DNA from: Candidatus Omnitrophota bacterium
GTDB lineage: Bacteria; Omnitrophota; Gorgyraeia; 2-01-FULL-45-10
Length of the DNA stretch: 64,000 nt
NCBI GenBank assembly: GCA_020057115.1
Contig: JAGVGJ010000001.1
Location: 12,164 to 76,163 of the forward strand
Direction: 5' to 3'
Of this stretch, positions 6,850 through 59,147 are shown piece by piece. Each line of letters opens with the position of its first letter. Position 1 is the stretch's first letter. The translations under genes and the position numbers were made by a program. A model generated the notes under the pieces. The model saw only the letters and a list, made by a program, of their open reading frames with translations. It was not told the origin of the DNA and did no database searches.

Positions 6850-8433
6850 GTGAAGGTAAGGCGCGCGCTTATAAGCGTTTCGGATAAGGCCGGACTTGAA
6901 GAGCTGGTCAAGGCATTGAATAAATTCAATGTCGAGATACTTTCAACGGGCGGGACCGCAAAGGCCATAAGGGCGCTTGATATACCGGTTAAGGATGTTT
7001 CGGAATATACCGGGTTCCCGGAGATGCTTGACGGAAGAGTAAAGACGCTTCATCCCAAGATACACGGCGGCCTATTGGCCCTAAGAGACTCTAAAGAGCA
7101 TATGGATACCGCCAAGAAGCATGATATCGGCATGATCGACATGGTCGTCGTCAATCTGTATCCATTCGAGAAAACCGTGGCAAAGCCAGGAGTGAAGCTC
7201 GAAGAGGCGATAGAGAATATAGATATAGGCGGGCCGTCCATGCTTAGGAGCGCGGCGAAGAATCACCGGTCTGTCTGCGTTATATGCGACCCGGCGGATT
7301 ACGGCAGGGTGATCGAAGAGCTGGAGAGGTCCGGCGGCAGCATGTCGGAAGCTCTTTTGACAGAGCTTGGGATCAAGGTGTTCGGCAGGACCGCAGAATA
7401 TGACGCGGCGATATATAATTATCTCACGAAAAATACGAGCCAGGGGCCAGGGGCCAGGGGCCAGGGTCCAGAAGAATTTCCAGAAGTACTGAGCCTGAGT
7501 TTCAAGAAGCTACAGGACTTAAGATACGGCGAGAATCCGCACCAGAAGGCCGCGTTCTATAGAGATGCCTCCATAAATGAATCGAGCGTAGCCGATTCCG
7601 TCCAGCTCCACGGAAAAGAGCTATCATTCAATAATATAATAGACCTTAATGCCGCGCTTGAGATCGTAAAAGAGTTCGACGAGCCGGCGGCCGCGATAAT
7701 AAAACACACAAACCCCTGCGGCGCAGCGACAGCAAAGACTTTAAAAGAAGCGTATCTCAATGCGCTCGACTGCGACCGCTTGAGCGCTTTTGGGAGCATA
7801 GTAGGGTTCAATAGAACCGTCGACATGGAACTTGCAAAAACGATACTGGAGGAGGCTGATTTCGTCGAATGCATGATCGCCCCGTCCTATGATGTAAAAG
7901 CCATCGAAGCGCTGAAGGTCAAAAAAAACCTGCGGCTTATCGAGGTGAAGAACTTTGCCGCAAAACCGTCCGGAAGCAATAAAGACATGAAGAAAGTCAC
8001 AGGCGGTCTTCTGGTGCAGGACAAGGATGCGGCGAGGATAAAGGAGCCCGATCTCAAGATAGTTACAAAGATCGCTCCCACGAAGGAAGAGATGCGCTCG
8101 CTCCTTTTCGGGTGGACCGTGGCAAAACATGTCAAGTCCAACGCGATAGTATTTTCCCAAGGCACTAAGACCATAGGCGTCGGCGCAGGCCAGATGTCGA
8201 GGGTCGACTCGGTGATGATAGCGGCAAAGAAAGCGGGATCCAGGGCCAAGGGCGCGACGCTGGCAAGCGACGCCTTCTTTCCGAAAGAGGATGGAGTTGA
8301 AGAGGCCGCCAGATCCGGCGTAAAAGCTATCATACAGCCCGGCGGGTCGATACGCGATAAAGAGGTCATCGCCTCAGCCGACAAGCTTGGCCTTGCGATG
8401 GTATTTACCGGCACCAGGCACTTCAAGCATTGA
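6850..8433 (+). CDS. purH: Bifunctional AICAR transformylase / IMP cyclohydrolase
   Basis: 527 aa with MGS-like and AICARFT domains (ISVSDKAGL..., TGGTAKA...). GTG start. Carries an in-frame GC-repeat segment at 7441-7470 (QGPGARGQGP). Confidence 0.95.
   Translation: MKVRRALISVSDKAGLEELVKALNKFNVEILSTGGTAKAIRALDIPVKDVSEYTGFPEMLDGRVKTLHPKIHGGLLALRDSKEHMDTAKKHDIGMIDMVVVNLYPFEKTVAKPGVKLEEAIENIDIGGPSMLRSAAKNHRSVCVICDPADYGRVIEELERSGGSMSEALLTELGIKVFGRTAEYDAAIYNYLTKNTSQGPGARGQGPEEFPEVLSLSFKKLQDLRYGENPHQKAAFYRDASINESSVADSVQLHGKELSFNNIIDLNAALEIVKEFDEPAAAIIKHTNPCGAATAKTLKEAYLNALDCDRLSAFGSIVGFNRTVDMELAKTILEEADFVECMIAPSYDVKAIEALKVKKNLRLIEVKNFAAKPSGSNKDMKKVTGGLLVQDKDAARIKEPDLKIVTKIAPTKEEMRSLLFGWTVAKHVKSNAIVFSQGTKTIGVGAGQMSRVDSVMIAAKKAGSRAKGATLASDAFFPKEDGVEEAARSGVKAIIQPGGSIRDKEVIASADKLGLAMVFTGTRHFKH
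7441..7470. repeat. GC-rich oligo-repeat (GGGGCCAGG x3 + GGGTCCAG) in-frame inside purH
   Basis: caggggccaggggccaggggccagggtccag, encoding a Gly/Pro/Gln-rich inter-domain linker. Confidence 0.8.
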
Positions 8434-9743
8434 TGGACTATCCTCAAGTATTAGCATACCTAGAGTCATTCATCGACCACGAAAAGAATACCTCCTATAA
8501 CTACAATTCTTCTTTTAAGCTCGAAAGGATGATGCGTTTTGCGGCGCTCCTCGGCGATCCGCAGAAAGGCATAAAGAGCATCCATGTCGCAGGCACCAAA
8601 GGCAAGGGCTCGACGGCGGCATTCATCCATTCCATATTGGGAAAGGCCGGATATAGGACAGGCCTCTATACCTCGCCGCATCTATTATCTTTCCGCGAGC
8701 GGATAAGGATAGGAGACTCGCTGATAAGCGAGGATGACATGGCAAGGATGATCGAAGGGATGAGACCAACTATCGATCTTTTAAAAGGCGAACAGCGTCC
8801 AAGTTTCTTCGAGGTCTATACTGCGCTTGCGTATAAATATTTTAGAGAAAAGAATGTAGATTTTGCGGTATATGAGGTCGGCCTGGGAGGAAGGCTCGAT
8901 GCCACTAACATAATAGAGCCTTTGGTATCCGTCATAACGCCTGTAAGTTACGAGCATATGGATAAACTCGGCAGCACATTGTCGCAGATAGCGTCAGAAA
9001 AGGCGGGGATAGTGAAGCATGGGATCCCTTGCGTCTCGGCTCCTCAGGAAAAAGAAGCGCTCGGCACCATCGAAAAGATATGTCAAGAGCGCTCGTCTCC
9101 GCTGGCAGTCGTCGGGAGAGATATAAATTTTAAGGAGATCGGAGCCGACGACACCGGCGAGACATTCAACGTGACAGGTATTGGCGGAAGAAGATATGCC
9201 GGCCTTAAAACATCGCTCATAGGCTCGCATCAGGTGGTGAATGCGGCTACCGCCATCGGAGCCATTGAAATACTGGAGACCTCCGGCATAAAGATCGCTC
9301 AGGATGCAGTAAGAGACGGCGTGGCCGGCGCAAGATGGGACGGGAGGCTTCAGGTGGTGGAAAGAAAGCCGCTTGTAGTATTGGACGGCGCGCAGAACCG
9401 CGCGAGCGCGGCAGTCGTCAGGAATTCAGTAAAGAAGATATTCAAATTCAGGAAACTTGCGCTCATCCTCGGCATATCAAAAGACAAAGATATCCCCGGC
9501 ATACTTGAAGAGCTCTTGCCGATAGCCGACTCCGTAATACTGACGAAATCAAGCGTCAAAGAGAGGGCGGCCGAGCCCGCTTTTATCATGGGGCTTATGG
9601 GCCCGAGGAGCGCTGTCTCTACGTCATCCGTAGAAGAGGCTTTAAAGGTCGCCAGGTCTAATGTATCGCCCGAAGACATGATCCTGGTAGCCGGGTCATT
9701 GTTCGTCGTGGGGGATGCATTAAAATTATTGAGTAAAACATAA
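8430..9743 (+). CDS. folC: Folylpolyglutamate synthase / dihydrofolate synthase
   Basis: 437 aa with the Mur-ligase-type P-loop GTKGKGST. Overlaps the purH stop by 4 nt. Confidence 0.9.
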   Translation: MMDYPQVLAYLESFIDHEKNTSYNYNSSFKLERMMRFAALLGDPQKGIKSIHVAGTKGKGSTAAFIHSILGKAGYRTGLYTSPHLLSFRERIRIGDSLISEDDMARMIEGMRPTIDLLKGEQRPSFFEVYTALAYKYFREKNVDFAVYEVGLGGRLDATNIIEPLVSVITPVSYEHMDKLGSTLSQIASEKAGIVKHGIPCVSAPQEKEALGTIEKICQERSSPLAVVGRDINFKEIGADDTGETFNVTGIGGRRYAGLKTSLIGSHQVVNAATAIGAIEILETSGIKIAQDAVRDGVAGARWDGRLQVVERKPLVVLDGAQNRASAAVVRNSVKKIFKFRKLALILGISKDKDIPGILEELLPIADSVILTKSSVKERAAEPAFIMGLMGPRSAVSTSSVEEALKVARSNVSPEDMILVAGSLFVVGDALKLLSKT

Positions 9744-9744
9744 T

Positions 9745-11181
9745 ATGATCGATCGCAATAATACCGAAGATACTATAGCAGCGATATCGTCTCCTATCGG
9801 CGAGGGCGGGATAGGCATAGTCCGCCTGAGCGGTCCGGGAGCGCGCGATATCGCTGATAAGATATTCCTGTCTAAAATCGGCAAGAAACCGTCGACATTC
9901 AAATCACATACCATGCATTATGGCCATATCGTTTCCACCCCGGACCCCGGACCCCGGCCCCTGGAACCTGGAACCTGGACCCTGGACCCTAAGATCATCG
10001 ACGAAGTCCTCCTGACCGTTATGCGCGCCCCGAAGACATATACGAAAGAGGATATAGTCGAGATAAACTGCCATGGCGGCATCCAGGCGCTCGGAGATGT
10101 CCTGGACCTTTGTATCAAAAGGGGCGCGCGGGTAGCAGAGCCAGGCGAATTCACCAGGAGGGCATTCATTAACGGCAGGATAGACCTGGCGCAGGCGGAG
10201 GCAGTCATCGACACTATACGCGCAAAGACCGAAGGCTCCCTTTCGGTAGCCATGAGCCAGCTCGAAGGCGAGCTTTCAGGAAAAATAAACGCATTGCGGG
10301 ATAAGATCATAGGTATAGCCTCGCACGTCGAAGCATCGATAGATTTTCCGGAAGAAGAGCTGGATTTATTCACTGAAGAGACGCTCAAGAGAGTGGGCGA
10401 GGCATTGGTCGAGCTGAAGGGCCTTATAGACTCATCTCGTGAAGGCATGATATTCAGGGATGGCATCCTCGCAGTGATATGCGGCAAGCCCAATGCCGGC
10501 AAATCTAGCCTCATGAACCTCCTTCTTAAAAGGGACAGGGTGATAGTGACCCCGATACCGGGGACTACGCGCGATGCCGTGGAGGAGATGATAAATTTAA
10601 AAGGCATACCGATAAGGCTTGTCGATACCGCAGGGATAGCTGACACCAAAGATGTCATTGAAAAAGAAGGCATGAGGCGATCTAAAAACTATCTCGACAG
10701 GTCTGACGTCGCGCTTCTGGTGTTGGATGGCTCGACTGAGCTGGACAGGGAGGACCTGGATATAATAAAATTGGTAGAGAAAAAGAAAAAAGTTGTTATA
10801 ATAAACAAGACAGACCTGTCTCCCGCAATAAGTGCAAAAGATGTGAAGGCGTATTTTAAGGACGAGCATATAATCGAGATATCTGTCGAAAAGAGAAAGA
10901 ATATAGACGTCCTTGAAAAAGCGATCGTGGATCTGGTGTGGAGCGGCCGCGTCCATGATAAAGAGCATGCGATAGTCGCAAATACAAGGCATAAGGCGCT
11001 CATCGAAAAGGCCTATAATAATATGGGCGCCGTCAAAAAGGCGATGGATAAAGGCTCCTGGCCGGAACTTGTTTCGATAGACCTCAAAGAAGCGGTCTTT
11101 AACCTTGGTCTGGTGGTCGGGAAATCAGTGTCGGACGATATATTGAATAAGATATTCGAACAATTCTGCATAGGAAAGTAG
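9745..11181 (+). CDS. mnmE: tRNA modification GTPase MnmE/TrmE
   Basis: 478 aa with G-domain GKPNAGKSSL and C-terminal CIGK. In-frame GC-repeat segment at 9947-9990 (PDPGPRPLEPGTWTLDP). Confidence 0.9.
   Translation: MIDRNNTEDTIAAISSPIGEGGIGIVRLSGPGARDIADKIFLSKIGKKPSTFKSHTMHYGHIVSTPDPGPRPLEPGTWTLDPKIIDEVLLTVMRAPKTYTKEDIVEINCHGGIQALGDVLDLCIKRGARVAEPGEFTRRAFINGRIDLAQAEAVIDTIRAKTEGSLSVAMSQLEGELSGKINALRDKIIGIASHVEASIDFPEEELDLFTEETLKRVGEALVELKGLIDSSREGMIFRDGILAVICGKPNAGKSSLMNLLLKRDRVIVTPIPGTTRDAVEEMINLKGIPIRLVDTAGIADTKDVIEKEGMRRSKNYLDRSDVALLVLDGSTELDREDLDIIKLVEKKKKVVIINKTDLSPAISAKDVKAYFKDEHIIEISVEKRKNIDVLEKAIVDLVWSGRVHDKEHAIVANTRHKALIEKAYNNMGAVKKAMDKGSWPELVSIDLKEAVFNLGLVVGKSVSDDILNKIFEQFCIGK
9947..9990. 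repeat. GC-rich oligo-repeat (opposite orientation: CCGGACCCC / CCTGGACCC units) in-frame inside mnmE
   Basis: ccccggaccccggaccccggcccctggaacctggaacctggaccctggaccct. Confidence 0.8.
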
Positions 11182-11190: not shown

Positions 11191-11748
11191 ATGGATAAGC
11201 CGAAGATAGAAAAGGCCGTAAGGGACATATTGATAGCCGTCGGCGAGGACCCGAAACGGCATGACATAAAGGATACGCCCAGGCGCGTTGCCGAGATGTA
11301 TGAGGAGATCCTCGGAGGCAAGAAGATAAATCCAGAGAAAGAGCTTGAGGTGGTATTCGAGAAAGACCATGACGAGATAATACTCTTAAAGAACATACCG
11401 CTCTATTCCGTATGCGAGCACCACCTGCTTCCATTCATCGGGAAGGCGCATGTCGCTTATATCCCCAAAGACAACAGGGTGACGGGCTTGAGCAAGCTCG
11501 CAAGAGTGGTAGACGCCTATTCAAGGCGCCTGCAGGTCCAGGAGCGCCTTACTACCGATATAGCGGAACTTATCATGAGAAAGCTTAAGCCGGCGGGGGT
11601 CCTCGTGGTGATCGAGGCAGAGCATCTGTGCATGTCTATGCGCGGGGTGAAGAAACCCGGGGTTGTCACGATAACGAGCGCTGTCCGCGGCGTCTTCAGG
11701 AAGAATGAGAAGACCCGGTCAGAGGCGCTCGCCCTGATAAGAGGGTAG
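11191..11748 (+). CDS. folE: GTP cyclohydrolase I
   Basis: 185 aa with the CEHHLLPF motif. Confidence 0.9.
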
Positions 11749-15724: not shown

Positions 15725-15729
15725 TAATA

Positions 15730-15759
15730 GGGTCCAGGGGCCAGGGTCAAGGGTCCAGG
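15730..15759. repeat. GC-rich oligo-repeat, intergenic between mlaE and mlaF
   Basis: gggtccaggggccagggtcaagggtccagg. Confidence 0.8.
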
Positions 15760-15769
15760 ATGGAGCGAG

Positions 15770-16567
15770 ATGGAGAAGGAAGTCGTAATAAAAGCGAGTA
15801 ATGTAAAGAAGAAGTTCGGGGACAGGGCTATCCTTAACGGCATATCGCTTGAGATATACAGAGGCGAGACATTCGTCATAATGGGCGGTTCGGGCTGCGG
15901 GAAGTCGACGTTCCTGCGCCATGTGATCGGCGCGCTTAAGCCTGATTCCGGGTCCATACACCTCTTAGGTAAAGATATAAGCAAGCTAAACGAAGACGAT
16001 CTCGATAAAGTGAAGAAGCGCATAGGCATGTGTTTTCAGTCCTCGGCCCTGTTCGACTCGATGACGGTAGGCGAGAACGTAGCCCTCGCCTTAAAAGAAC
16101 ATACAAAGCTCGACAAGTCCGTTATAGATATAGTGGTCAAGATGAAGCTTGAGATGGTGGGCTTGAGGGGTTTCGAGGACTTGATGCCGAGCCAGCTTTC
16201 CGGAGGCATGAGAAAGAGGGTGGGCCTGGCGCGCGCGATAGCCATGGACCCGGAGATAGTCTTCTATGACGAGCCTACGGCGGGGCTTGATCCGATAGTC
16301 GCCGGGGTCATCGACAAACTCATAATTGACCTTTCGAAGAAGCTTGCGATAACGAGCGTCGTCGTGACGCATGACATGAAGAGCGTGTTTTCGATAGCCG
16401 ACAGGGTCGCGATGCTTTACGAAGGCAAGGTCCTCGAGGTGGGGACGCCTGCCGAGATAAAGGCGTCGAAGAACGCCATGGTACAGCAGTTCGTGAACGG
16501 CTCGCCTGACGGGCCGATAAGGTTCTTCCAGCAGAAGGACGATTACATAGAGCAGTTGCTTAAATAG
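15770..16567 (+). CDS. mlaF: Mla ABC transporter ATP-binding protein
   Basis: Walker A GGSGCGKST, signature LSGGMRKR and Walker B. Confidence 0.85.
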   Translation: MEKEVVIKASNVKKKFGDRAILNGISLEIYRGETFVIMGGSGCGKSTFLRHVIGALKPDSGSIHLLGKDISKLNEDDLDKVKKRIGMCFQSSALFDSMTVGENVALALKEHTKLDKSVIDIVVKMKLEMVGLRGFEDLMPSQLSGGMRKRVGLARAIAMDPEIVFYDEPTAGLDPIVAGVIDKLIIDLSKKLAITSVVVTHDMKSVFSIADRVAMLYEGKVLEVGTPAEIKASKNAMVQQFVNGSPDGPIRFFQQKDDYIEQLLK

Positions 16568-19145: not shown

Positions 19146-20306
19146 ATGGGCGCAAAAAAGAGCACGAGAGACAATGCGGCTAGAGTTCTTTTACACGTGA
19201 GCAGGATAATGAGTTCATCTCCAGAACTTGATACGGTGAATGACGCCATACTGCGGGAGTCAAGAAAGGCGCTTGGGGCTGACCACGTGTCATTGTTCCT
19301 CCTCGACCAGGAGACAGGATACCTTGACCTTATCAAGGCCGAGGGGTTTACCGCAGACCAGATAGACAACCTGAAGCTTCTCGGCAGCTGGGAGGTCATA
19401 AACGAACAGCTTGTGGAGAAGAAAAAGATCGTCGTGGCCAATGATGTCCGGAAGAGCCAGTTATTCAAGGATAAGACGCTGCCATTCTCTTCCGAGAGGC
19501 TTCCGATCCACTCATTTCTTGCCGCGCCGCTGGTAAAGGACGGCGCGACTGTCGGGGCCCTGATAGTAAGCAATAAAAAGCGGTCGAACCACCATTTTAC
19601 GAAACATGACGCGGATTTCTTGAGCACCCTCTCAAATTACATCGCCATAGCGCTTATCAGCGCCAAGCTCTACATAAAGCTGAAAGAGCTCTTCATAACC
19701 ACCGTAAAGTCCCTCGTAAAGGCTGTCGACGCCAAGGACCAGTATACTAGTGGCCATTCGGAGAGGGTGATGAAATACGCCTACACGATCGGCAAGGAGA
19801 TGGGGCTCGGCCACGATACGATGGAGAACCTGAAATTATCGAGCCTCCTGCATGATATAGGCAAGCTCGGCATAAAAGAGAGCGTTCTCTCCAAGCCCGG
19901 AAAGCTCTCCGCCCGCGAGAGGCGCCAGGTGAGCCATCATCCTGCGATCGGAGTAAAGATAGTGGATTCCATAGCCGATTCCCACAAGATAATACGGGGC
20001 ATACTCGAGCATCACGAACACTTTGACGGGAAGGGTTACCCGAACGGGCTTAAGGCAGGCGAGATATCGCTGGAAGGGCGGATAATAGCCGTTGCCGATA
20101 CATTCGACGCCATGACCACAGCCAGGCCGTACAACAGGAAATATTCGCCCGAAGAAGCGCGCCTTATGGTGAAGAAGGGCTCGGGGACGCAGTTCGATCC
20201 CCATGTGGTGCGGGTTTTTATGAGGTCATATTCGAAACATCCGGAAGTCTGGCAGGCTCTGGCATGGGCGGGACACGGCCTGGCCGAGGGCGTTGACATT
20301 TGGTAG
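19146..20306 (+). CDS. GAF-domain HD-GYP phosphodiesterase (c-di-GMP)
   Basis: HDIGKLGI and HHEHFDGKGYPNGL motifs. Confidence 0.8.
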   Translation: MGAKKSTRDNAARVLLHVSRIMSSSPELDTVNDAILRESRKALGADHVSLFLLDQETGYLDLIKAEGFTADQIDNLKLLGSWEVINEQLVEKKKIVVANDVRKSQLFKDKTLPFSSERLPIHSFLAAPLVKDGATVGALIVSNKKRSNHHFTKHDADFLSTLSNYIAIALISAKLYIKLKELFITTVKSLVKAVDAKDQYTSGHSERVMKYAYTIGKEMGLGHDTMENLKLSSLLHDIGKLGIKESVLSKPGKLSARERRQVSHHPAIGVKIVDSIADSHKIIRGILEHHEHFDGKGYPNGLKAGEISLEGRIIAVADTFDAMTTARPYNRKYSPEEARLMVKKGSGTQFDPHVVRVFMRSYSKHPEVWQALAWAGHGLAEGVDIW

Positions 20307-21403: not shown

Positions 21404-23907
21404 TAGAAGATACGAGACAATATCCATTTAATGAGATAGAGTCCAAGTGGCAGGAGTACTGGCGCCAGATGAGGCTCTTTAATGTAGATACCAAAGAATA
21501 CAAGAACAAATACTACTGCCTCATGATGTTCCCGTATCCGTCGGCAGCGCTGCATGTGGGCCACGGCAGGAACTATATAATAGGCGATGCCGTCGCGCGC
21601 TATAAGATGATGCGGGGATATGATGTCCTGACCCCCATGGGATTTGACGCATTCGGCCTTCCCGCAGAGAATGCCGCTATTAAGAGCGGCGTCCATCCCG
21701 AGACATCCACGCTTAATAATATAAGCACCATGAGGCGGCAGTTCAGCCAGTGGGGCGTAGAATACGACTGGGACAGGGAGGTGGTATCATGCCTTCCGGA
21801 TTATTATAAATGGACCCAGTGGATATTCCTTAAGCTTTACGGGAAGGGCCTTGCCTACAAGAAGAAAGCGTTCGTTAACTGGTGCCCTTCATGCAAGACT
21901 GTGCTTGCCAACGAGCAGGTCGTTGACAATGCCTGCGAAAGATGCTCGACAGAAGTCACCCAGAAGGACCTTGAGCAGTGGTTTTTCAAGATAACCCATT
22001 ATGCCGACAGGCTCTTAAAGGATATCGGCAAGCTTACGGAATGGCCCGAGCGCGTCAAGACAATGCAGTGCAACTGGATAGGGAAGAGCGAAGGCGTGGA
22101 GATAGATTTTAAGATAGACGGCTCAAGCGATACGCTAAAGTGTTTCACCACAAGGATAGACACGATATTCGGCGCCACCTTTATAGCCCTCGCCCCGGAG
22201 CATCCTCTTGTAGAAAAGTTCGTCAAGGGATCGAAGGAAGAAAAGGCCGTAGCCGAGCTTGTGCGGAAGATGCGGGATGAATCGAAGATCGAGCGCTCTG
22301 ACGCGAATGTCGAGAAAGAAGGCGCATTTACGGGTAAATATGTGATCAACCCTGTAAACGGCAAGAAGGTCCCGATATGGGTCGCCAATTATATACTCAT
22401 GGAATACGGCACGGGTGCCATTATGGCAGTCCCTGCCCATGACCAGAGGGATTTTGAATTCGCTAAGAAATACAAACTGCCGATCGAGGTAGTTATCGAC
22501 GACCCGAAGAGCCCTCTTAAGGTCGAGGCCATGAAAGAGGCCTATATGGGCGAGGGCATCATGGCTAATTCCGCACAGTTCAATGGCCTTGATTCAAGCG
22601 TTTCCATAACGAAGATAGCCGAGTTTTTTGAAGAAAAGGGTTATGGAAAGAGGACTACTCAATATAAGTTGAGGGATTGGCTCATCTCCCGCCAGAGATA
22701 CTGGGGAGCGCCCATACCGATAATATATTGCAATAAGTGCGGGGTCGTGCCTGTCCCGGAAAAGGACCTGCCGGTGCTATTGCCTAAGAATGTGGAGTTC
22801 AGGCCTACCGGCGAGTCTCCGCTCAAATTCTCTGAGAGTTTTGTCAATACAAAGTGCCCGAAATGCGGCGGCCAGGCGACGAGAGAGACCGACACCATGG
22901 ACACGTTCGTCGATTCAAGCTGGTATTACTTGCGTTATATAACGCCTAAACTGGATCAAAAGCCGTTTGATGCAGAACTGGTAAATAAGTGGCTGCCGGT
23001 CGATCAGTACATCGGCGGCGTTGAGCATGCGATACTGCATCTATTGTATTCCAGGTTCATAACGAAATTCTTAAAAGATATCGGATGCGTGGGGTTTGAC
23101 GAGCCGTTTAAGAACCTGTTCACCCAGGGCATGATAACAAAGAATGGCATCAAGATGTCCAAGTCGAAGGGTAACACCGTATCCCCGGATGATCTGATAG
23201 CCAGTTACGGGGCCGATACAGTGAGGTTATATACGCTTTTTATCGGTCCACCGGAGAAAGATGCCGAATGGTCGGATCGGGGAGTGGAAGGAGCGTATCG
23301 GTTCCTCGGGAGGGTGTGGAGGCTGGTAGAGAAGGGTCCAGGGTCCAGGGTCTCCCGCCCGGCAGACATAGAGGGGCGGGACAGGCAGGGTCCAGGAAAA
23401 GATAAAGAAGATGCCACTTTGAGACGCAAGATCCACTCCACCATCAAAAAAGTCACCGAGGATCTGGACGGAGGATTCCATTTCAATACCGCCATAAGCG
23501 CCGTAATGGAACTCGTCAATGAAACATATGACCGCTTAGCTCAGTCTACGGATGGTTCGTCTGGGGGTGGTGCGGTAGCCGAGGCCATCGAGACTGTTGT
23601 TATGCTCCTCTCGCCATTCGTCCCGCATATCGCCGAAGAGATGTGGCAGAAGCTCGGGAAAAAGAACAGCATATTCAGGGCGAGCTGGCCGCCTTATGAC
23701 GAGAAGGCGCTCGCAGCCGACGTATTTACGATGGTCATACAGGTGAACGGAAGGATGCGGTCCAAGATCGATGTGCCGGCCGGCATGAAAGACGACAAGA
23801 TAAAAGAGATAGCGCTATCCGACCCGAAGGTCCAGCCGTTCATCAAGGACAAGACCGTAAGACAGGTAGTGGTGGTCCCGAAGAAGTTAGTCAACATAGT
23901 AGCTTAA
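21400..23907 (+). CDS. leuS: Leucyl-tRNA synthetase
   Basis: 835 aa with HVGH (HIGH) and KMSKS motifs. In-frame GC-repeat segments at 23333-23355 and 23388-23396. Confidence 0.95.
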   Translation: MIEDTRQYPFNEIESKWQEYWRQMRLFNVDTKEYKNKYYCLMMFPYPSAALHVGHGRNYIIGDAVARYKMMRGYDVLTPMGFDAFGLPAENAAIKSGVHPETSTLNNISTMRRQFSQWGVEYDWDREVVSCLPDYYKWTQWIFLKLYGKGLAYKKKAFVNWCPSCKTVLANEQVVDNACERCSTEVTQKDLEQWFFKITHYADRLLKDIGKLTEWPERVKTMQCNWIGKSEGVEIDFKIDGSSDTLKCFTTRIDTIFGATFIALAPEHPLVEKFVKGSKEEKAVAELVRKMRDESKIERSDANVEKEGAFTGKYVINPVNGKKVPIWVANYILMEYGTGAIMAVPAHDQRDFEFAKKYKLPIEVVIDDPKSPLKVEAMKEAYMGEGIMANSAQFNGLDSSVSITKIAEFFEEKGYGKRTTQYKLRDWLISRQRYWGAPIPIIYCNKCGVVPVPEKDLPVLLPKNVEFRPTGESPLKFSESFVNTKCPKCGGQATRETDTMDTFVDSSWYYLRYITPKLDQKPFDAELVNKWLPVDQYIGGVEHAILHLLYSRFITKFLKDIGCVGFDEPFKNLFTQGMITKNGIKMSKSKGNTVSPDDLIASYGADTVRLYTLFIGPPEKDAEWSDRGVEGAYRFLGRVWRLVEKGPGSRVSRPADIEGRDRQGPGKDKEDATLRRKIHSTIKKVTEDLDGGFHFNTAISAVMELVNETYDRLAQSTDGSSGGGAVAEAIETVVMLLSPFVPHIAEEMWQKLGKKNSIFRASWPPYDEKALAADVFTMVIQVNGRMRSKIDVPAGMKDDKIKEIALSDPKVQPFIKDKTVRQVVVVPKKLVNIVA
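23333..23396. repeat. GC-rich oligo-repeat segments in-frame inside leuS
   Basis: gggtccagggtccagggtctcc ... cagggtccagg, encoding EKGPGSRVSRPADIEGRDRQGPGK. Confidence 0.75.
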
Positions 23908-33417: not shown

Positions 33418-34540
33418 ATGATACAAGAGCTGAATAATGACATAAAACTGAGCGAAGAGAAGCTGAAAGAGCTCAGAGGTTATCTTTGACGTCGATAACA
33501 AGCTAAAGAGGATAACTGTCCTTGAGGAAGAGATCTCCAGGCCAGATTTTTGGAGCAATGAAACACGTTCCAAAGAGGTCATCAGAGAGCTCAAATACTT
33601 AAAAGCCATAGCAGAGCCGTTCTCAAAGCTCACAAGTGATCTTAAAGATATAAAAGAGATAGTCTCCATAGCCGAATCCGGCGACGCGGAATCACTGAAA
33701 CACTTCAAAGAAGAGCTTTCCAGGATAAAACTCAAGATAGATGATATAGAGTTCAGAAGCCTTCTGGGAGAGGAAGCGGATAGTTGTAATGCAATAATGA
33801 GTATCAATGCCGGAGCCGGGGGCACCGAATCATGCGATTGGGCGGGTATGTTGCTGAGGATGTATACCAAGTGGGCCGAGGCAAGAGGATGCGAGATCGA
33901 AAGGATAGACCAGCTCGCAGGTGAAGAGGCGGGCATAAAGAATGTCACGGTGCTCATAAAAGGCGATTATGCTTACGGGTACCTCAAGAGCGAGTCAGGC
34001 GTCCATCGTCTTGTCAGGATCTCGCCTTTCGATTCAAATAAGAGGCGCCACACTTCATTTGCTTCCGTTGATGTCATACCCGAAGTGTCCGACGATATCC
34101 AGATAGACGTAAAGGAACAGGATCTAAAGATAGACACTTATCGCGCCGGAGGCAAGGGCGGCCAGCATGTCAATAAGACCGACTCCGCTGTCAGGATAAC
34201 GCATATTCCTTCAGGCATAGTCGTCCAGTGCCAGAACGAAAGATCGCAGGGCAAGAACAAGGCGATGGCGTTTAAGCTGTTGAGGGCGAAACTTTATGAG
34301 AAAGAGCGTCTTGCCAAAGAGAAGCTGGTGGCTAGCGCTTACGATTCAAAGAAGGAGATCGCCTGGGGCAGCCAGATAAGGTCTTATGTGCTCCATCCGT
34401 ATTCCATGGTAAAGGACCACAGGACAGGCTGTGAGACAGGGAATGCCGAGGCGGTCCTTGAAGGGAAGATAGACGCGTTCATCGAGGCATATTTAAAAAG
34501 GGGCAAGGGTCCGGGGTCTGGGGTCCAGGAGAAGGGGTAG
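33418..34540 (+). CDS. prfB: Peptide chain release factor 2 with a programmed +1 ribosomal frameshift: join(33418..33486, 33488..34540)
   Basis: Frame 0 encodes [23 protein letters not shown] and ends at the canonical AGAGG-UAU-CUU-UGA-C frameshift site (SD-like plus CUU UGA C). The +1 frame continues DVDNKLK... through the SPF and GGQ motifs. The GC-repeat at 34501-34530 encodes the C-terminal [12 protein letters not shown]. Confidence 0.85.
34501..34530. repeat. GC-rich oligo-repeat at the 3' end of prfB (in-frame)
   Basis: gggcaagggtccggggtctggggtccagga. Confidence 0.75.
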
Positions 34541-34541
34541 A

Positions 34542-45871: not shown

Positions 45872-46711
45872 ATGATATTTCGTGATATGGGGATATTTGA
45901 GAAAGCGCAGATAGATTTTCTCACCGGGTTCTTCTTAAGGGAATCCTTCGGCCAGTTCCTCGAAAAGGCTATGCGCGAGGCCACGGCCACAAGCGGCGTA
46001 GTTACGCTTGCGCTAGTTGACCTTGACCACTTCAAAAATTTCAACGATAAATTCGGCCATGACTTCGGCGACGAGATCCTGAAGTATTCCGCCAGCACCA
46101 TCAGGCTCACTATGGACGAGAACCAGACCTATTTCTTCCGTTACGGAGGCGATGAATTTATCGTGGTCTTTGCAGGCAAGACGCAGAAAGAGGCCCTCCA
46201 GCTGTTAAAATACTGCAGGCATAACCTCCTCCACAGGCCTTTCCTCTTAAAGAATAAATTCCAGAAGATCACCATGAGTATCGGCGTCGCAAGCTTCCCG
46301 CATGACGCCCAGACCGTGGAGGACCTGATCGCGAAGGCTGATAATGCCATGTACTATTCCAAACGCCACGGACGCAACCGCATAACAATGTGGAGCTCTA
46401 TAAGCCATCTCAAGGCGCGAAATTATTTTATCCTGTTCGGCACCCTGGCCATCATGGTGCTTTCCACTTTCGTAGCGGCATATGTGCCGCCGATCAAAGA
46501 AAGCATAATGGCCTTTATCGGTAACATCAAAGAGCTCCGAAAGGTCTCTTTTGACAAGATCGTGCTTAAGAGCGGCGCTGTGTTTGAAGGCAGGATAGTG
46601 AACGAGGATGCCACTACTATATTTTTGCAATTGAACCTAAAAGAGGGGGAAGGGTCGCTCAAGCTTGACAAGTCTAAGGTGTCAAAGATAATACGCGCCA
46701 AATCTCGTTAG
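45872..46711 (+). CDS. GGDEF-domain diguanylate cyclase with a C-terminal TM helix and ~90-aa tail
   Basis: RYGGDEF motif. Start set at ATG 45872 because the track ORF extends upstream into the palindromic repeat. Promoter TTGAAT-17-TATGAT immediately upstream, so possibly leaderless. Confidence 0.7.
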   Translation: MIFRDMGIFEKAQIDFLTGFFLRESFGQFLEKAMREATATSGVVTLALVDLDHFKNFNDKFGHDFGDEILKYSASTIRLTMDENQTYFFRYGGDEFIVVFAGKTQKEALQLLKYCRHNLLHRPFLLKNKFQKITMSIGVASFPHDAQTVEDLIAKADNAMYYSKRHGRNRITMWSSISHLKARNYFILFGTLAIMVLSTFVAAYVPPIKESIMAFIGNIKELRKVSFDKIVLKSGAVFEGRIVNEDATTIFLQLNLKEGEGSLKLDKSKVSKIIRAKSR

Positions 46712-46739
46712 GGTCAAGGGGCCAGGGTCCGGGGTCCAG
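46711..46739. repeat. GC-rich oligo-repeat immediately after the GGDEF gene stop
   Basis: gggtcaaggggccagggtccggggtccag. Confidence 0.8.
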
Positions 46740-48070: not shown

Positions 48071-51000
48071 ATGGCAGGACCCTACAGCAGGCTATTCGAA
48101 TTCACCAGAGACGGCATATACAGCTACACGTTTGCCGACGGGAAGATACTATCCGCGAACCACGGTTTTATCAGGATCCTTGACCTCGACTGCAAGCCAC
48201 CCGAAGTCGAAGGAAGGCTCCTTAAAGACGTGATGACCTATGTCGAAAAGGAGGGTACGGTCCGGAGGCTCCTGGAAGAGAAAGGAGAACTTCATAACTA
48301 TGAATACCACTTTAAGACGCTGAAGGGCGAGGACAGGTGGGTCATCTACGATTCATTCCTTTCCGTGGATCCGGTGACCGGCGAGAGAGTGGTAGAGACG
48401 ATAGTAAAAGATATAACCGACCGTAAGAAGAAGGAAGATGAGGCCAGGCGGTACCGCGCCCATCTCGAGGAGCTTGTAAAGGAGCGCATAGAAGAGTTGA
48501 AAGCCCTCAATGAACAGTTGAGGCGCGAAGTCGCGGAGCGCAAGGAGGCGGAGGAGAGGCTTGCCAAGATAAACAGCTGCTTCCTGAAATTCGGTTCCGA
48601 CTCGCTTGAGAATATAAAGCTGTTGACAGCCCTCTTGGGCGAAACTATGGGCGCGACATGCGCCCTTTATAACCGGCTGGAAGAGGGCATGCTATGCTCT
48701 ATAGGGCAATGGAACACCCCTTCCGATTATAACGCTATCGATAAACCCGAAGGGCATTTATGCTATGACGTTATAAGGCACGGTACCGACATACCTTTCA
48801 TAGTAAATAATCTTCCGGGAACGCCTTATGCGGCTACAGATTCCAATGTAGCCAGATATAACCTGCGCACTTATGTCGGCGTGGCTGTAAAGTCCGGCGG
48901 CAGGTACATAGGCTCGCTTTGCGCTGTTTATCAGAAAGACGTCATCCTTACGGAAGACGATAAGAAGCTGATAGGGTTGATCGCCACAGCCGTGGGCATA
49001 GAGGAAGAGAGATTGAGGATGGAGGGCGACATACTTGAGTCGAAAGAGTATCTCTCCAAGATCATAAATTCTATCGGCGATCCCGTGTTCGTAAAAGACA
49101 GGCAGCATCGCCTGATACTGGTAAATGACGCCGAATGCCGTCTTGCAGGCCATTTGAGAGAAGATGTTACAGGAAAGACGGATTATGACTTCTTCCCGAA
49201 AGAGCAGGTCGACATATTCTGGAAGAAGGATGAGATGGTGTTCGAGACCGGCGAAGAGAATATAAACGAGGAGACGATCACCGATGCCCAAGGCGTGACT
49301 CACACTATCATCACGAAGAAGACGCGCTATATCGACCCGGAGGGTAATAAATTCATAGTCGGCATCATAAGGGATATAACAGACCGCAAGGCGACCGAAG
49401 AACAACTCCAACAGAACTACGATATCCAGAAAGCCGTAAACTCTCTCCTCAACCTTTCGCTAAGAGACATGCCTTTAGAGGAATTCCTTAAAAATACGCT
49501 CGACCTCATAATGTCCATCCCCAGGCTTTCGCTTGAATCGCGCGGCGGCATATTTCTGACGGAAGATCATTCTGATACCCTGAGGCTAAAGGTGCATAAC
49601 GGCCTTACCGAGCAGATACAGAAGGCATGCGGGAGCGTCCCATTCGGCAAATGTCTCTGCGGCAAGGCGGCGCTGACAAAAAAGACGCAGTTTGCCGCAT
49701 CTATCGACGAGCGTCATGAGACAACTTATGAAGGCATCATCCCTCACGGCCATTACTGCGTTCCGGTGCTATGGGCAGACAAGGTCCTCGGAGTAATAAA
49801 CTTTTACTTGAAAGAGGGGCATCCCTATAAAAAGAGTGAAGAAGATTTTCTGGTTGCCGTAGCTAACACCCTGGCCGGCGTCATAGAGCGCAAGCGCGTG
49901 GAGGAAGAACTAAAGAAGAGCGAGGCGAGTCTCGCGGAAGCCCAGAGGATAGCGCGCCTGGGGAACTGGGAGTGGGATATAAAGGCCAATAGCATAAAAT
50001 GGTCGGCCGAGGTATACCGCATATTCGGGAGAGCGCCGTCTGATTTTAACGGCACGCTCGAAGCATTCCTGGAATATATTCATCCCGCCGACAGAGGATT
50101 CGTTAAAGAAGCGTTGGATGACGCGCTGCACAAGCAAGAGAACTACTCCATAGACCACAGCATCCTGCTGCCGAACGCAGTGGAGAGGATAGTCCACGAG
50201 CAGGGAGAGATCACCTATGACGGGAACGGCGAGCCCGTGCGCATGGTAGGGACTGTCAATGACATAACCGAACGAAAGATCATGGAGGGTGAGCTCAGGA
50301 AGCATCGTGACCACCTTGAGGACTTGGTCAAGCAGCGCGCCGCCCAGATCATCGAGGTCAATGAGAGCCTCCAGCGCGAAGTCGCCGAGCGTAAGCGCGT
50401 CGAAGAGGCGTTGAGGGAGTCGGGGGAGAATTACAAGACCCTGTTCGAGCATTCTCCTATAGCGCTCTTCCAGGAAGATTGCTCCGGCATGAAGAAGTAT
50501 ATAGACAGTCTTAAGGCGACCAGCGGCGCTGACCTGAAGAAATATTTTGAAGACCATCCCGAAGTCTTAAAGGAGTGCATAGAAGCGATAAAGATAGCAG
50601 ATGCCAATAAGCAGGCCTTAATGCTTTTCGACGCGAGGGATAAAGAAGAGCTTTACAGGGCGGTCAAAAATATACTCATCGCCGATGCTTATAGCGATTT
50701 TGCGGAGGCGATCGTAGCTTCTAGCGAAGGAAAGTATGCTCTCGAACACGAGACCAGCATACATACGCTTACCGGAGCCAAGAAATATTGCACTGTCAAG
50801 ATATCGACCGTTGCGGGAAGCGAGACGACATGGGCGAAAGTATTGATATCTATGGTCGATATAACGGAGCGCAAGCTTGTAGAGGAAGCGCTCGAGATAT
50901 CGGAGGCAAACTACCGCGCCATATTCGATACGGCCAATGACGCCATATTCGTCTTTGATATTAAGACAGGGGTTATAATCGACGCCAACAGGAAGGGCTG

Positions 51001-52867
51001 CGAGATGTACTGCTATTCCAGGGACGAGATACGCTCTCTGGGCATAGACATGCTAAGTTCAGGCGAGCATATCTATACGAAAGACGGCGCGGACAGCTGG
51101 ATACAGAGAGCCTCTAACGGAGAGCCGCAGATAGTAGAGTGGCTTTCGAAAGATAAGGCCGGCCGCCTATTCTGGGTCGAGATAAACCTGCGCAGGGCCA
51201 TAGTCGGCTCCAAATACTGCCTTCTTGCGGTAGTGCGCGACATAACTGAGCGCAAAGAGTCCGAAGAGAAGCTGAGAGAGAGCGATCTCAGATTCAGGAA
51301 AGCCGTATTCGATGCGACCTTCCCGATAATGATCCATTCGGAAGACGGCGACGTCATGCTTCTCAATAAGGCCTGGACGGAATTATCCGGTTATACCCAG
51401 GAAGACATACCGACCACCTCTGTTTGGGCGGAGAAAGCCTATGGCAGTAAAAAGGCCATCGTAAAAGCCGATATCGACAAGTTGTACAAGCTGGATGAGA
51501 GGGTCAAGGAGGGCGAGTATGTCATAACCGCCAAGACCGGCGAAAAGAGGGTATGGGATTTCAGCGCCGCCCCTCTCGGGGCCCTTCCTAACGGCAAGCG
51601 TATCGTCATGTCTATGGCGATGGATATCACCGAGCGTAAGGGCGCGGAGAATCAGATCAAGGAGCTTAACAGGGAGCTCCTTAAGACGAATAACATGCTT
51701 AAGCAGCTGGCACTCAAGGATTCCCATACCGGGCTTTACGGCCACAGGTATCTGGCGGAGGCGATCCTCAAGGAATTTTCCAGGGCCAAGAGAGAGGCCA
51801 CGCCACTCTCAGTCATAATGCTCGATATCGATTATTTTAAATCGATAAACGATGTCTACGGCCATCAGTTCGGCGATATTGTTTTAAAGCAGTTCGCTGC
51901 GCACCTGAAAAAGGCGGTGCGGATATACGACATAGTCATACGTTACGGCGGAGAGGAGTTCATAATAATATCTCCGGGTTCGGACAGGGCGGGCGCCCTG
52001 GTGCTCGCCAGGAGGATATTGAATACTGTGAGCCTGGCCCGTTTTGGCGACAAAGAGCATAGCGTGAAAATGAAGATGAGCGCGGGCGCGGTCTCTTACC
52101 CGGAGGACCGGGCCGTGAAGGCCATGGACCTCGTTAATTTCGTCGACAAGATACTGAATAAGGCCAAGGAAGAAGGCGGCAACAGGGTATGCTCGTCTGT
52201 CGACATGAAGAGGCCCAAGGCATCCGTTACCATGGAAGAGGAAGAGGATATAACGGACGTAAAGCTCCTCAAAGAAAAGATAGAGAAGCTTACCAAGCGC
52301 GGCAACCAGAGCCTTATCGAGGCCATATTCGCCTTCGCGAAGACCATAGAAGTTAAGGATAATTATACGGGAGAGCATGTCGAAAAGGCCGTCCATTACG
52401 CGACCGAGATAGCCAAGGAGCTCAATCTTTCAAAGAACGAGATAGAGCTGATAAAGAAGGCCGCGGCGCTTCATGATCTCGGCAAGGTGGGGATAAGCGA
52501 TAAGATACTGCGCAAGAAGTCAAAGCTTACCGAAAAAGAGTTTGAAGAGATAAAGAGGCATTCGCAGATAGGTGTCGATATATTGAGGCCCGTCCACTTC
52601 ATGCATGACATAATACCCCTGATCCTCCACCATCATGAAAGATGGGACGGTAAAGGATATCCCGACAAGCTTAGAGGCGACGAGATACCGATCGGCGCGC
52701 GCATAATCTCCGTGTCAGACGCCTATGACGCTCTTACGTCGAACAGGCCTTACCGTAAAGCATACCGCAAGAACAAAGCCATCGAGATCATAAAGAGGGC
52801 TTCCGGGACGATGTATGACCCCAGGATCATAAATGCCTTCTTCAAAGTCCTGAAAGATGGAAAATAG
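48071..52867 (+). CDS. Large multi-domain c-di-GMP signalling protein: multiple PAS domains, GAF, coiled coils, GGDEF, HD-GYP
   Basis: 1598 aa with repeated PAS signatures, RYGGEEF (GGDEF) and HDLGKVGI...HHHERWDGKGYPD (HD-GYP). Confidence 0.85.
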   Translation: MAGPYSRLFEFTRDGIYSYTFADGKILSANHGFIRILDLDCKPPEVEGRLLKDVMTYVEKEGTVRRLLEEKGELHNYEYHFKTLKGEDRWVIYDSFLSVDPVTGERVVETIVKDITDRKKKEDEARRYRAHLEELVKERIEELKALNEQLRREVAERKEAEERLAKINSCFLKFGSDSLENIKLLTALLGETMGATCALYNRLEEGMLCSIGQWNTPSDYNAIDKPEGHLCYDVIRHGTDIPFIVNNLPGTPYAATDSNVARYNLRTYVGVAVKSGGRYIGSLCAVYQKDVILTEDDKKLIGLIATAVGIEEERLRMEGDILESKEYLSKIINSIGDPVFVKDRQHRLILVNDAECRLAGHLREDVTGKTDYDFFPKEQVDIFWKKDEMVFETGEENINEETITDAQGVTHTIITKKTRYIDPEGNKFIVGIIRDITDRKATEEQLQQNYDIQKAVNSLLNLSLRDMPLEEFLKNTLDLIMSIPRLSLESRGGIFLTEDHSDTLRLKVHNGLTEQIQKACGSVPFGKCLCGKAALTKKTQFAASIDERHETTYEGIIPHGHYCVPVLWADKVLGVINFYLKEGHPYKKSEEDFLVAVANTLAGVIERKRVEEELKKSEASLAEAQRIARLGNWEWDIKANSIKWSAEVYRIFGRAPSDFNGTLEAFLEYIHPADRGFVKEALDDALHKQENYSIDHSILLPNAVERIVHEQGEITYDGNGEPVRMVGTVNDITERKIMEGELRKHRDHLEDLVKQRAAQIIEVNESLQREVAERKRVEEALRESGENYKTLFEHSPIALFQEDCSGMKKYIDSLKATSGADLKKYFEDHPEVLKECIEAIKIADANKQALMLFDARDKEELYRAVKNILIADAYSDFAEAIVASSEGKYALEHETSIHTLTGAKKYCTVKISTVAGSETTWAKVLISMVDITERKLVEEALEISEANYRAIFDTANDAIFVFDIKTGVIIDANRKGCEMYCYSRDEIRSLGIDMLSSGEHIYTKDGADSWIQRASNGEPQIVEWLSKDKAGRLFWVEINLRRAIVGSKYCLLAVVRDITERKESEEKLRESDLRFRKAVFDATFPIMIHSEDGDVMLLNKAWTELSGYTQEDIPTTSVWAEKAYGSKKAIVKADIDKLYKLDERVKEGEYVITAKTGEKRVWDFSAAPLGALPNGKRIVMSMAMDITERKGAENQIKELNRELLKTNNMLKQLALKDSHTGLYGHRYLAEAILKEFSRAKREATPLSVIMLDIDYFKSINDVYGHQFGDIVLKQFAAHLKKAVRIYDIVIRYGGEEFIIISPGSDRAGALVLARRILNTVSLARFGDKEHSVKMKMSAGAVSYPEDRAVKAMDLVNFVDKILNKAKEEGGNRVCSSVDMKRPKASVTMEEEEDITDVKLLKEKIEKLTKRGNQSLIEAIFAFAKTIEVKDNYTGEHVEKAVHYATEIAKELNLSKNEIELIKKAAALHDLGKVGISDKILRKKSKLTEKEFEEIKRHSQIGVDILRPVHFMHDIIPLILHHHERWDGKGYPDKLRGDEIPIGARIISVSDAYDALTSNRPYRKAYRKNKAIEIIKRASGTMYDPRIINAFFKVLKDGK

Positions 52868-58036: not shown

Positions 58037-59079
58037 TCATAGACGATTTTCTTTACCAGTCGAGCGAATGGCTTAAGGGCACAGGCCCGAGCTCTGAAAT
58101 AGTCATGTCTTCCAGGACGCGGCTGGCGCGCAATATCGACAAATATCCGTTCGCCCACTGGGCCAAAGATAAACAGCTTGTCGAGATAATTGATGCCGTG
58201 AAAGATGCGGCCGATTCGATAGACATGCTGAAGGACTCGCTCTTCCTGAAGCTCAAGGACGTAAGCGAGGTGGACAGGGTATTTCTTGTAGAGCGCCATC
58301 TTATGAGCCCCGAACATGCCAAGGACGTAGAGTTTAAGGCGCTTATCATAGACCCTAAAGAGATCGTCAGCATAATGATCAACGAAGAAGATCACTTGAG
58401 GATACAGGTGCTTAAATCCGGCCTCGACCTTATGGATGCCTGGAAGATCATAGATAAGCTCGATACGGAATTCTCGAAGAGGCTGCCGTTCGCATTCTCG
58501 TCCAAATGGGGTTATCTTACGGCATGCCCTACAAATACCGGCACAGGATTGAGGGGCTCTGTCATGTTCCATCTGCCGGCGCTGGTATTCTCCGGGCAGA
58601 TAAACAAGATCCTGCAGGCTACGGCGAAGCTCGGACTCAATGTAAGGGGATTGTACGGAGAAGGGACGGAGGCCTCCGGCAACCTTTTTCAGGTATCGAA
58701 TCAGGTCGCCCTCGGTAGGACCGAGGAAGACATGATAGACAATATCCAGCGGATAACGAACCAGATAGTGACGCGGGAAGAGACGATGAGAAAAGGCATC
58801 CTGGCGAAGAGCAAGGAGGCCCTGTCCGACAGGGTGTGGCGCGCTTACGGGACATTGAAGAGCGCTCACATAATAACCTCGAGCGAGACGATAGGCCTTC
58901 TTTCGGCAATACGCCTAGGGATCGAGCTCGGCATCGTGAAGGATATCGATGCGGAGACGGTGAACGAACTTATCATATTGACGCAGCCGGCGCACCTTCA
59001 GAAGCTCGAAGGCAAGGCGCTGAATTCCGAAGAGCGGGACGTGAAGCGGGCGAATCTTATTCGAGAAAAATTGAAATAG
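58033..59079 (+). CDS. mcsB: Protein arginine kinase McsB (ATP:guanido phosphotransferase)
   Basis: [11 protein letters not shown] active-site motif of the phosphagen-kinase-like domain. Confidence 0.85.
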
Positions 59080-59147
59080 GGTCAAGAGTCCAGGGTCAAG
59101 GGTCCAGAAAATTTTACTGGACCCAGGCCCCTGGCCCCTGGACCCTG
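59079..59147. repeat. GC-rich oligo-repeat in inverted pair (hairpin) between mcsB and clpC
   Basis: gggtcaagagtccagggtcaagggtccag ... ctggacccaggcccctggcccctggaccctg. Confidence 0.8.

Follow-up and report, generated by a model that had tools for sequence, protein, structure and literature searches.

Dispersed arrays of a G-rich heptanucleotide in the spacers and essential genes of an Omnitrophota genome

Eight tandem arrays of a 7-nt unit are dispersed over seven loci in a 64-kb stretch of DNA from a Candidatus Omnitrophota bacterium (contig JAGVGJ010000001.1, positions 12,164 to 76,163; the whole stretch is referred to here as the window). Four loci lie within open reading frames (ORFs), those of purH, mnmE, leuS and prfB, and three in the spacers behind mlaE, a GGDEF cyclase gene and mcsB. 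In its unit, dispersal, preference for four units, convergent pairs, enrichment in spacers and proximity to stop codons, this family is an Omnitrophota instance of the class of dispersed heptameric repeats described by Rehm et al. (2015; PMC4692102). We consider it likely that the arrays are heptanucleotide simple-sequence repeats (SSRs) written in a G-rich GGGKCMR "dialect" of that known class and shaped by slippage together with selection. Identical units are present on either strand, in every codon phase and also outside genes, which supports the initial annotation of this stretch in treating them as a repeat family of the DNA itself; they do not reflect protein-level selection for Gly/Pro linkers.

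Results

The repeat unit and its copy number

Every array in the window has a period of 7 according to Tandem Repeats Finder (TRF), with the G-tracts 7 nt apart (for example at 7443, 7450, 7457 and 7464; Table 1). The unit of 8-9 nt proposed in the initial annotation is thus too long, its 9-mers being one heptamer extended by the GG that opens the following one. Allowing at most one mismatch, the two-unit pattern GGGKCMRGGGKCMRG was found 24 times versus 0.29 ± 0.54 expected from 100 dinucleotide shuffles, none of which reached 24, and the signal is thus well in excess of chance. A three-unit pattern with at most three mismatches gave 23 matches versus 0.21 expected. Every one of these falls within the seven loci, all of which had been placed correctly and on which TRF and the pattern counts agree; the inventory of loci is thus complete, and no decayed extra copy was detected in the window with this pattern.

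The consensus GGGKCMR is derived from 34 full units [G34 G33 G32 (T25/G9) C34 (C28/A5/T1) (A27/G6/T1)], the commonest being GGGTCCA (13 of 34) and the others including GGGGCCA, GGGTCAA and GGGTCCG. Six of the eight arrays consist of four units followed by G or GG. The final full unit is GGGTCCA in 8 of 9 array segments, versus 5 of 25 units at other positions. Identities between units at lags of 1, 2 and 3 are 0.82, 0.79 and 0.78, respectively, and a 21-nt super-period is unconvincing (0.88 identity between units 1 and 4, 0.78–0.86 for other pairs). The sense strand carries the G-rich side in 7 of 9 segments. An alignment of the flanks of the window arrays revealed no terminal inverted repeats, target-site duplications or conserved flanking sequence, and no match to the Rfam 15 covariance models at the gathering score overlaps any array.

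Table 1. Heptamer arrays in the window, with their composition and the corresponding TRF calls
Feature	Position	Strand	Composition	TRF call (copies)
purH array	7439..7471	+	gCCA (GGGGCCA)x3 GGGTCCA G; 4.7 units, 33 nt	7439-7471 (4.7)
mnmE array	9937..9990	-	(GGGTCCA)2 (GGTTCCA)2 GGGGCCG (GGGTCCG)2 GGG; 7.7 units, 54 nt	9937-9990 (7.7)
mlaE/mlaF spacer array	15729..15759	+	GGGTCCA GGGGCCA GGGTCAA GGGTCCA GG	15729-15759 (4.4)
leuS composite	23333..23396	+	63 nt; GGGTCCA GGGTCCA GGGTC (23334-23352), 33-nt insert, CA GGGTCCA GG (23386-23396)	23333-23352 (2.9)
prfB tail array	34500..34529	+	GGGGCAA GGGTCCG GGGTCTG GGGTCCA GG	34507-34526 (2.9)
Post-GGDEF array	46710..46739	+	GGGTCAA GGGGCCA GGGTCCG GGGTCCA G	46710-46739 (4.3)
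mcsB/clpC left arm	59078..59107	+	GGGTCAA GAGTCCA GGGTCAA GGGTCCA G; one broken G-tract (GAG)	59078-59104 (3.9)
Loop between mcsB/clpC arms	59108..59116	.	AAAATTTTA	
mcsB/clpC right arm	59117..59147	-	GGGTCCA GGGGCCA GGGGCCT GGGTCCA G	59117-59147 (4.4)

Arrays in intergenic spacers

Coding sequence makes up approximately 93% of the window and the median spacer is 45 nt; array density is 0.71/kb in intergenic versus 0.067/kb in genic sequence, or approximately 11-fold higher in spacers. All three intergenic loci begin 0–5 nt from the upstream stop codon. The mlaE/mlaF array starts 5 nt past the mlaE stop, occupies 30 of the 45 nt of its spacer and is preceded by an in-frame TAA TAA TAG, the final TAG taking its G from the start of the array. 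Similarly, the G of the TAG stop of the GGDEF gene (46709-46711) is the first G of the array that follows, and the G of the mcsB stop (TAG, 59077-59079) is the first G of the left arm at that locus. Here two four-unit arrays converge, and the right arm stops 15 nt 5′ of the clpC-type GTG at 59162. Together, the arms form an imperfect hairpin of −41.3 kcal/mol versus −19.9 ± 3.4 kcal/mol for shuffled sequence (z about −6). The description of intergenic copies as hairpins applies to this inverted pair but not to the other two intergenic arrays, which are single and direct.

Arrays inside essential genes

The mRNA carries the G-rich strand in three of the four intragenic arrays. In purH, the array is translated as QGPGARGQGPE, the linker joining the IMP cyclohydrolase and AICAR transformylase domains, and the insert corresponds to an 11-residue gap in the best homologue in the Protein Data Bank (PDB), 9ou7, located between the end of IMP cyclohydrolase and the LRYGENPHQ motif. 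In mnmE, the G-rich strand is antisense to the gene and the sense strand is C-rich. The array encodes the 16-residue run DPGPRPLEPGTWTLDP, which with the preceding proline added is the 17-residue PDPGPRPLEPGTWTLDP reported earlier; the peptides quoted for the intragenic arrays are correct. The segment around this run spans 14 gap positions in Nostoc MnmE (3geh), in a loop of the N-terminal domain between two strands. An AlphaFold2 model of MnmE (mean pLDDT 70.5) places the run between strands 56-64 and 83-93 without secondary structure, with pLDDT < 50 at residues 68-79.

The leuS array is interrupted by a 33-nt GC hairpin (23353-23385, TCCCGCCC...GGGCGGGACAGG), built from TCCCGCCC-GGCAGACATAGAG-GGGCGGGA-CAGG and inserted in register and in frame. 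When the insert is removed and the "CA" behind it is counted to the array, a canonical array of four units plus GG remains. No second copy of this hairpin was found in the window or in 203 loci, save for unrelated matches in four GC-rich genomes. The composite encodes GPGSRVSRPADIEGRDRQGPG, within a segment of leucyl-tRNA synthetase (LeuRS) that is variable in other bacteria; the window LeuRS is longer here by 4 aa than that of Neisseria, by 6 aa than its closest relative (L124 in our labelling of relatives) and by 12 aa than three other Omnitrophota proteins.

Homology to release factor 2 (RF2), as judged from the prfB model and all solved RF2 structures, stops at ...AYLK, 13 aa before the stop codon. 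The prfB array and the bases flanking it on each side encode these 13 aa as a C-terminal tail, with TAG at 34538-34540 and secA beginning at 34542, 1 nt past the stop. In prfB, the array is thus a C-terminal extension past the normal end of RF2 and not an insertion within the protein. Further upstream, CTTTGAC at 33484-33490 (+) is the classical programmed +1 frameshift motif of prfB, located approximately 310 nt 5′ of the first in-frame ATG in the long RF2 frame. Because of this site the RF2 ORF, as listed, spans residues 120-353 only. At both secA and mlaF, the 3′ ends of the arrays (GGTCCAGGA...) give an AGGA/AGGAG Shine-Dalgarno-like sequence 8–12 nt 5′ of the start (34527-34544 and 15756-15772), and judging from these motifs the arrays may contribute ribosome-binding sites to the two genes.

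The gaps in the PDB homologues of PurH and MnmE, the RF2 tail and the mostly short loops of orthologues agree with the reading of the intragenic copies as linker-like additions at tolerant sites. That such copies are retained only in frame is a trivial outcome of selection on essential genes. We also considered whether a stop-free unit could discriminate intragenic arrays. It was rejected as a discriminator; all intragenic arrays are stop-free, but so are 69% of all heptamers, and calling an array intragenic presupposes an open frame.

Heptamer arrays in other Omnitrophota

The survey covered 826 kb of syntenic Omnitrophota DNA, consisting of the window and 82 further loci. The gene order purH, folC, mnmE, folE ... 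mlaE, mlaF is kept in contigs with MnmE orthologues and in 80 metagenomic loci located via MlaE. A period of 7 accounts for 56 of the 96 arrays with at least 3 copies and for 29 of the 34 strong arrays, and there is no exact array of at least 4 copies at any other period in these 826 kb. The units are highly varied and often AT-rich, including GTAAAAA, GAAAAAC, GATATAC, GTTATTA and GAGTATC. With a lowered TRF threshold, the lengths of period-7 arrays are bimodal, with a chance-level shoulder at 14–20 nt, a trough at 21–23 nt (9 arrays) and a mode at 24–33 nt (56 arrays). Units without any G3/C3 tract show an equal plateau at 3–4.5 copies followed by a drop, whereas periods 5, 6, 8 and 9 fall monotonically.

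In position, 26 of the 45 strong arrays lie between co-directional genes, 2 between divergent and 1 between convergent genes, so that co-directional genes flank 26 of 29 intergenic arrays across the phylum. A further 13 (29%) are in ORFs, 10 of them internal and 3 as C-terminal tails, in sequence that is 91% coding. Inverted or nested array pairs were observed at L158, L149, L167, L144 and L176. In the folC/mnmE spacer of L158 (4187-4347, also in L159) almost the whole sequence is made up of four-unit arrays in a nested A-B-loop-B′-A′ layout plus a fifth array, and L149 has four arrays within 250 nt (1790-2039). Entire spacers can therefore consist of heptamer arrays.

The same protein sites are occupied by different heptamers in different lineages. 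The PurH linker of L002 carries (GGGTATC)4.9 at the same codons as the GGGGCCA array of the window, and its mnmE loop holds (GGGATAY)4 and then a C-rich array of four units; in L001, the mnmE loop holds (GGTYNTC)3.6 plus (ACCGAAA)5. Most Omnitrophota orthologues have a minimal MnmE loop and a short PurH linker. The linkers of relatives mostly lack any residual period-7 signal that would mark them as decayed arrays; only L167 has a suggestive remnant. Distinct heptamers at one PurH linker or MnmE loop point to recurrent seeding filtered by selection. Related genomes also differ in the presence of the mlaE/mlaF array, which is missing in the syntenic relatives L001 and L002 (the L002 spacer is approximately 18 nt), and the unit sequences themselves differ between lineages. 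As a separate observation, the MnmE orthologues P0028 and P0102 contain a second insertion of 16–30 residues after the G-domain motif NKxD...L (about columns 391-420 of alignment A1), which is missing in all others.

Genome setting

NCBIfam agrees with the gene names given initially: purH, mnmE, leuS, prfB, mlaE, mlaF, the GGDEF cyclase, mcsB and the clpC/clpB-type ATPase. The + strand carries almost every gene and shows a positive GC skew throughout. The closest relatives of MnmE are just 69% identical, and the named matches are metagenome-assembled genomes (MAGs) of Candidatus Omnitrophota. Genes related to cyclic di-GMP (c-di-GMP) are abundant, including the GGDEF gene (45665-46711), a 1598-aa PAS/GAF/GGDEF/HD-GYP protein (48071-52867) and a GAF-HD_5 protein (19146-20306), and a c-di-GMP-I riboswitch (Rfam RF01051, 64.6 bits) is located at 5764-5854 (+). 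Two tRNA genes (RF00005; 20333-20403 and 20466-20549, +) separate the GAF-HD gene from the gene before leuS. A 23-nt direct repeat of 1.9 copies (GGGACGTTTCTAAATCTAATCTT) in the spacer at 1780-1823 is unrelated to the heptamer family. The 484-aa ORF 3′ of the clpC-type gene (61610-63064, +) has no Pfam match at E ≤ 1e-5.

Discussion

Relation to known repeat classes

Rehm et al. described the heptamers GGGAATC and GGGGAYT in Xanthomonas and Nostoc, with the general formula GGGNATC, a preference for four units and 70–75 convergent pairs (PMC4692102). These repeats are 89–93% intergenic, mostly between aligned ORFs, the upstream one being on average 28 nt away, and 7–11% intragenic; oligonucleotides form G-quadruplexes (G4) in vitro by circular dichroism, and no function was found (PMC4692102). 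The family in the window shares the 7-nt unit with a leading G3-4 tract, the dispersed occurrence, the preference for four units and the convergent inverted pairs. It is likewise enriched in non-coding DNA between co-directional ORFs, near the upstream stop and on the sense strand, and it lies with common housekeeping genes, not with surface or contingency genes. The GGGTATC unit of L002 fits the GGGNATC formula itself. On the other hand, the GGGKCMR unit differs, Omnitrophota is a phylum new to the class, and the share of arrays in ORFs is higher (4 of 7 loci in the window and 13 of 45 arrays across the phylum versus 7–11%), with the intragenic copies mostly on the coding strand. Sister lineages also have AT-rich heptamers of equal array size, and the capacity to form G4 is thus not the common denominator.

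The cyanobacterial short tandemly repeated repetitive (STRR) heptanucleotides of Calothrix and Anabaena (Mazel et al. 1990) are reported to form dispersed tandem arrays, with several lineage-specific unit families per genome. Our arrays resemble them as dispersed tandem heptamers with lineage-specific units; they differ in their unrelated unit sequences and in the in-frame copies within essential genes, STRR having been described as intergenic. The Rickettsia palindromic elements (RPE; Ogata et al. 2000) are said to be 100–150 bp long and to lie in frame in housekeeping genes at surface-exposed sites. In-frame copies in housekeeping genes that do not disturb the fold are common to both, but the elements here are heptamer arrays of 30–63 nt and not palindromic elements, and there is no kinship in sequence or structure.

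MacGregor (2015) described TAACTGA arrays in Beggiatoaceae, cyanobacteria and Bacteroidetes, which consist of 2–6 copies located in short spacers, lie mainly just 5′ of start codons and often overlap upstream stop codons; copies inside ORFs are restricted to the protein periphery (PMC4679880). Our family also forms heptamer arrays that overlap the upstream stop. In L167, (TAACTAA)6.9 just 5′ of a start codon (11654-11701) is one mismatch away from TAACTGA. However, TAACTGA has stops in all forward frames and cannot be ORF-internal in that orientation, whereas GGGKCMR is stop-free on both strands save for antisense GGGTCAA. REP/REPIN elements, which are mobilized by RAYT transposases (Bertels and Rainey, 2011; PMC3116915), are similarly short, abundant and extragenic, and can be compared with the inverted doublet hairpin between the co-directional mcsB and clpC-type genes. 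REPs are fixed imperfect palindromes of about 20–40 nt, typically found as inverted doublets, in contrast to the periodic direct repeats of variable copy number described here, where a doublet occurs at 1 of 7 loci, and no RAYT (Y1 transposase) gene is present among the window ORFs. We searched the literature for heptameric and other tandem repeats in Omnitrophica/Omnitrophota and found no relevant work.

The family had been regarded as lineage-specific. This is true of the unit sequence among the Omnitrophota relatives, but GGGKCMR arrays occur in many other phyla and other heptamers pervade Omnitrophota. A scan for (GGGKCMR)3GGG in one genome per GTDB species yielded at least 120 stretches; among the matches listed are Nostoc, Lysobacterales, Acidobacteriota, Planctomycetota, Chloroflexota, Verrucomicrobiota, Streptomyces and others. 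The matches listed are genuine heptamer arrays, with units that include GGGGCAG (Nostoc), GGGTCAG (Planctomycetota, Chloroflexota) and GGGTCCA (a Blastocatellia and a Syntrophobacterales MAG). Of 128 arrays among these matches, 60 have four units and 16 have five. Nor is the phenomenon rare at the genome level as suggested, dispersed heptamers having been published for Xanthomonas and Nostoc (PMC4692102) and for the ORF ends of Beggiatoaceae (PMC4679880).

Origin of the arrays

If the arrays are SSRs, slipped-strand mispairing would lengthen and shorten them in steps of 7 nt; a link between heptamer slippage and the polymerase footprint is a hypothesis of Mrazek cited by Rehm et al. (PMC4692102). 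New sites would be seeded by some copying process, and purifying selection would then set where arrays persist, mostly in the tiny spacers of a compact genome. Because each stretch of 21 nt takes a 7-nt repeat through the three codon phases in turn, it must be stop-free in every phase within an ORF. Persistence there would accordingly need a unit of this kind, a net length that is a multiple of 3 and a site in a linker, surface loop or C-terminal tail. The genic share of surviving arrays is unusually large because the spacers are so small. We read the intragenic copies as by-products that are tolerated, and not as adaptations. Any function of the arrays would most probably be exerted through RNA, as putative structured elements (hairpins, possibly G4) at the 3′ ends of cistrons.

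Several points weigh against this explanation. Slippage alone cannot put one 7-mer at seven loci in 64 kb, and a separate dispersal step is therefore required. The conserved GGGTCCA at the 3′ end, together with the mode at 24–33 nt, hints at a discrete module or at polar addition, and the lack of decayed copies in the window implies fast turnover or maintenance. In addition, the nearest relatives are approximately 70–83% identical at the protein level, which is too distant to show copy-number polymorphism.

An alternative is a miniature mobile element, REP/REPIN- or MITE-like (miniature inverted-repeat transposable element), that would be mobilized in trans and insert a discrete module of approximately 30 nt. 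One unit family at seven loci, the discrete size of six arrays (four units plus G or GG) with a conserved 3′-terminal unit, the absence of the mlaE/mlaF array from syntenic relatives, the REPIN-like inverted doublet and the lack of decayed copies are all in line with such an element. Nevertheless, we regard it as unlikely. The number of units ranges from approximately 3 to 7.7 within the family, six loci are single direct arrays and not palindromes, and what is constant across the phylum is the 7-nt period and not any sequence that a transposase could recognize. No transposase, RAYT or reverse transcriptase was found among the window ORFs, and together with the featureless flanks this argues against the label "invasive" in the sense of mobile. 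The flank alignment does not fit a MITE proper, as it lacks terminal inverted repeats and target-site duplications. The tendency of the arrays to stop at a discrete size could instead come from a generator, in Omnitrophota and perhaps in other phyla, that is specific for the period and independent of sequence and makes arrays of about four units (24–33 nt), each lineage having its own heptamer. Such a generator might be a stuttering polymerase or primase, or a templated addition with polarity towards the G-strand 3′ end, and it would seed the 3′ ends of cistrons and the same tolerant protein loops again and again. We think it quite improbable that such a generator exists; if it does, the published four-unit rule for G-rich repeats would reflect the generator and not selection for G4.

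Selection for G4 is an explanation in its own right, in which four G3 tracts with 4-nt loops would form DNA or RNA quadruplexes regulating the transcription, translation or mRNA decay of neighboring genes. Exactly four GGG tracts 7 nt apart, a canonical G3N4 motif, are present in six of eight arrays, and the position on the sense strand just past stop codons is that of the Xanthomonas/Nostoc class with G4 in vitro (PMC4692102). The minimum-energy fold from ViennaRNA is a G4 for the prfB, GGDEF-3′ and mnmE (antisense) arrays. However, this is 3 of 8 arrays only, and single-array energies are within about 1–1.5 standard deviations of shuffles; in the other 5 the energy model favors hairpins because the GGKCC units are partly self-complementary. 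One arm has a tract broken by GAG, and the mnmE array contains two GGTTCCA units. The G-rich strand is in the mRNA for three of four intragenic arrays, an orientation that would be avoided if G4s stalled ribosomes. Finally, AT-rich heptamers without G tracts occupy similar sites in relatives with the same 24–33 nt preference, which weakens the G4 explanation of that preference; we judge selection for G4 to be quite unlikely as the origin of the arrays. Selection could also have acted on the proteins, favoring flexible linkers rich in Gly/Pro/Gln and leaving the repetition in the DNA as a side effect. This view fits the location of the intragenic copies in linkers and loops and their peptides rich in G/P/Q/R/S. 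It is scarcely tenable, since identical DNA units in non-coding spacers effectively refute it, the mnmE array uses the opposite strand and a different peptide, and orthologues have unrelated sequence or no insert at these sites. Moreover, a 7-nt period cycles through all codon phases, and the repetition in the peptides is thus a consequence of that in the DNA. We give practically no weight to clustering by chance or to an artefact of assembly, in view of the shuffling results and the analogous arrays in many independent assemblies from NCBI, ENA and JGI. Phase variation by contingency SSRs was also considered and rejected; with purH, mnmE, leuS and prfB as hosts, a change of 7 nt would be a lethal frameshift and not a switch.

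Significance

The arrays are of practical concern in two respects. They introduce spurious low-complexity insertions into the marker-protein alignments (LeuRS, RF2, MnmE, PurH) used in phylogenomics of candidate phyla, and they may act as hot-spots for frameshifts in MAG assemblies. Among long bacterial microsatellites, heptameric repeats are the only class with consistent over-representation. The SSR interpretation that we favor extends this class to an uncultured phylum of the PVC group with very compact genomes. Two points go past the literature and are modestly new, namely that different heptamers have repeatedly come to occupy the same loops of proteins, and that the preference for four units holds irrespective of G tracts; the larger share of arrays in ORFs, phylum-wide and in the window, is also beyond what has been published. 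In essential genes, the arrays reveal protein positions that tolerate 10–20 extra residues.

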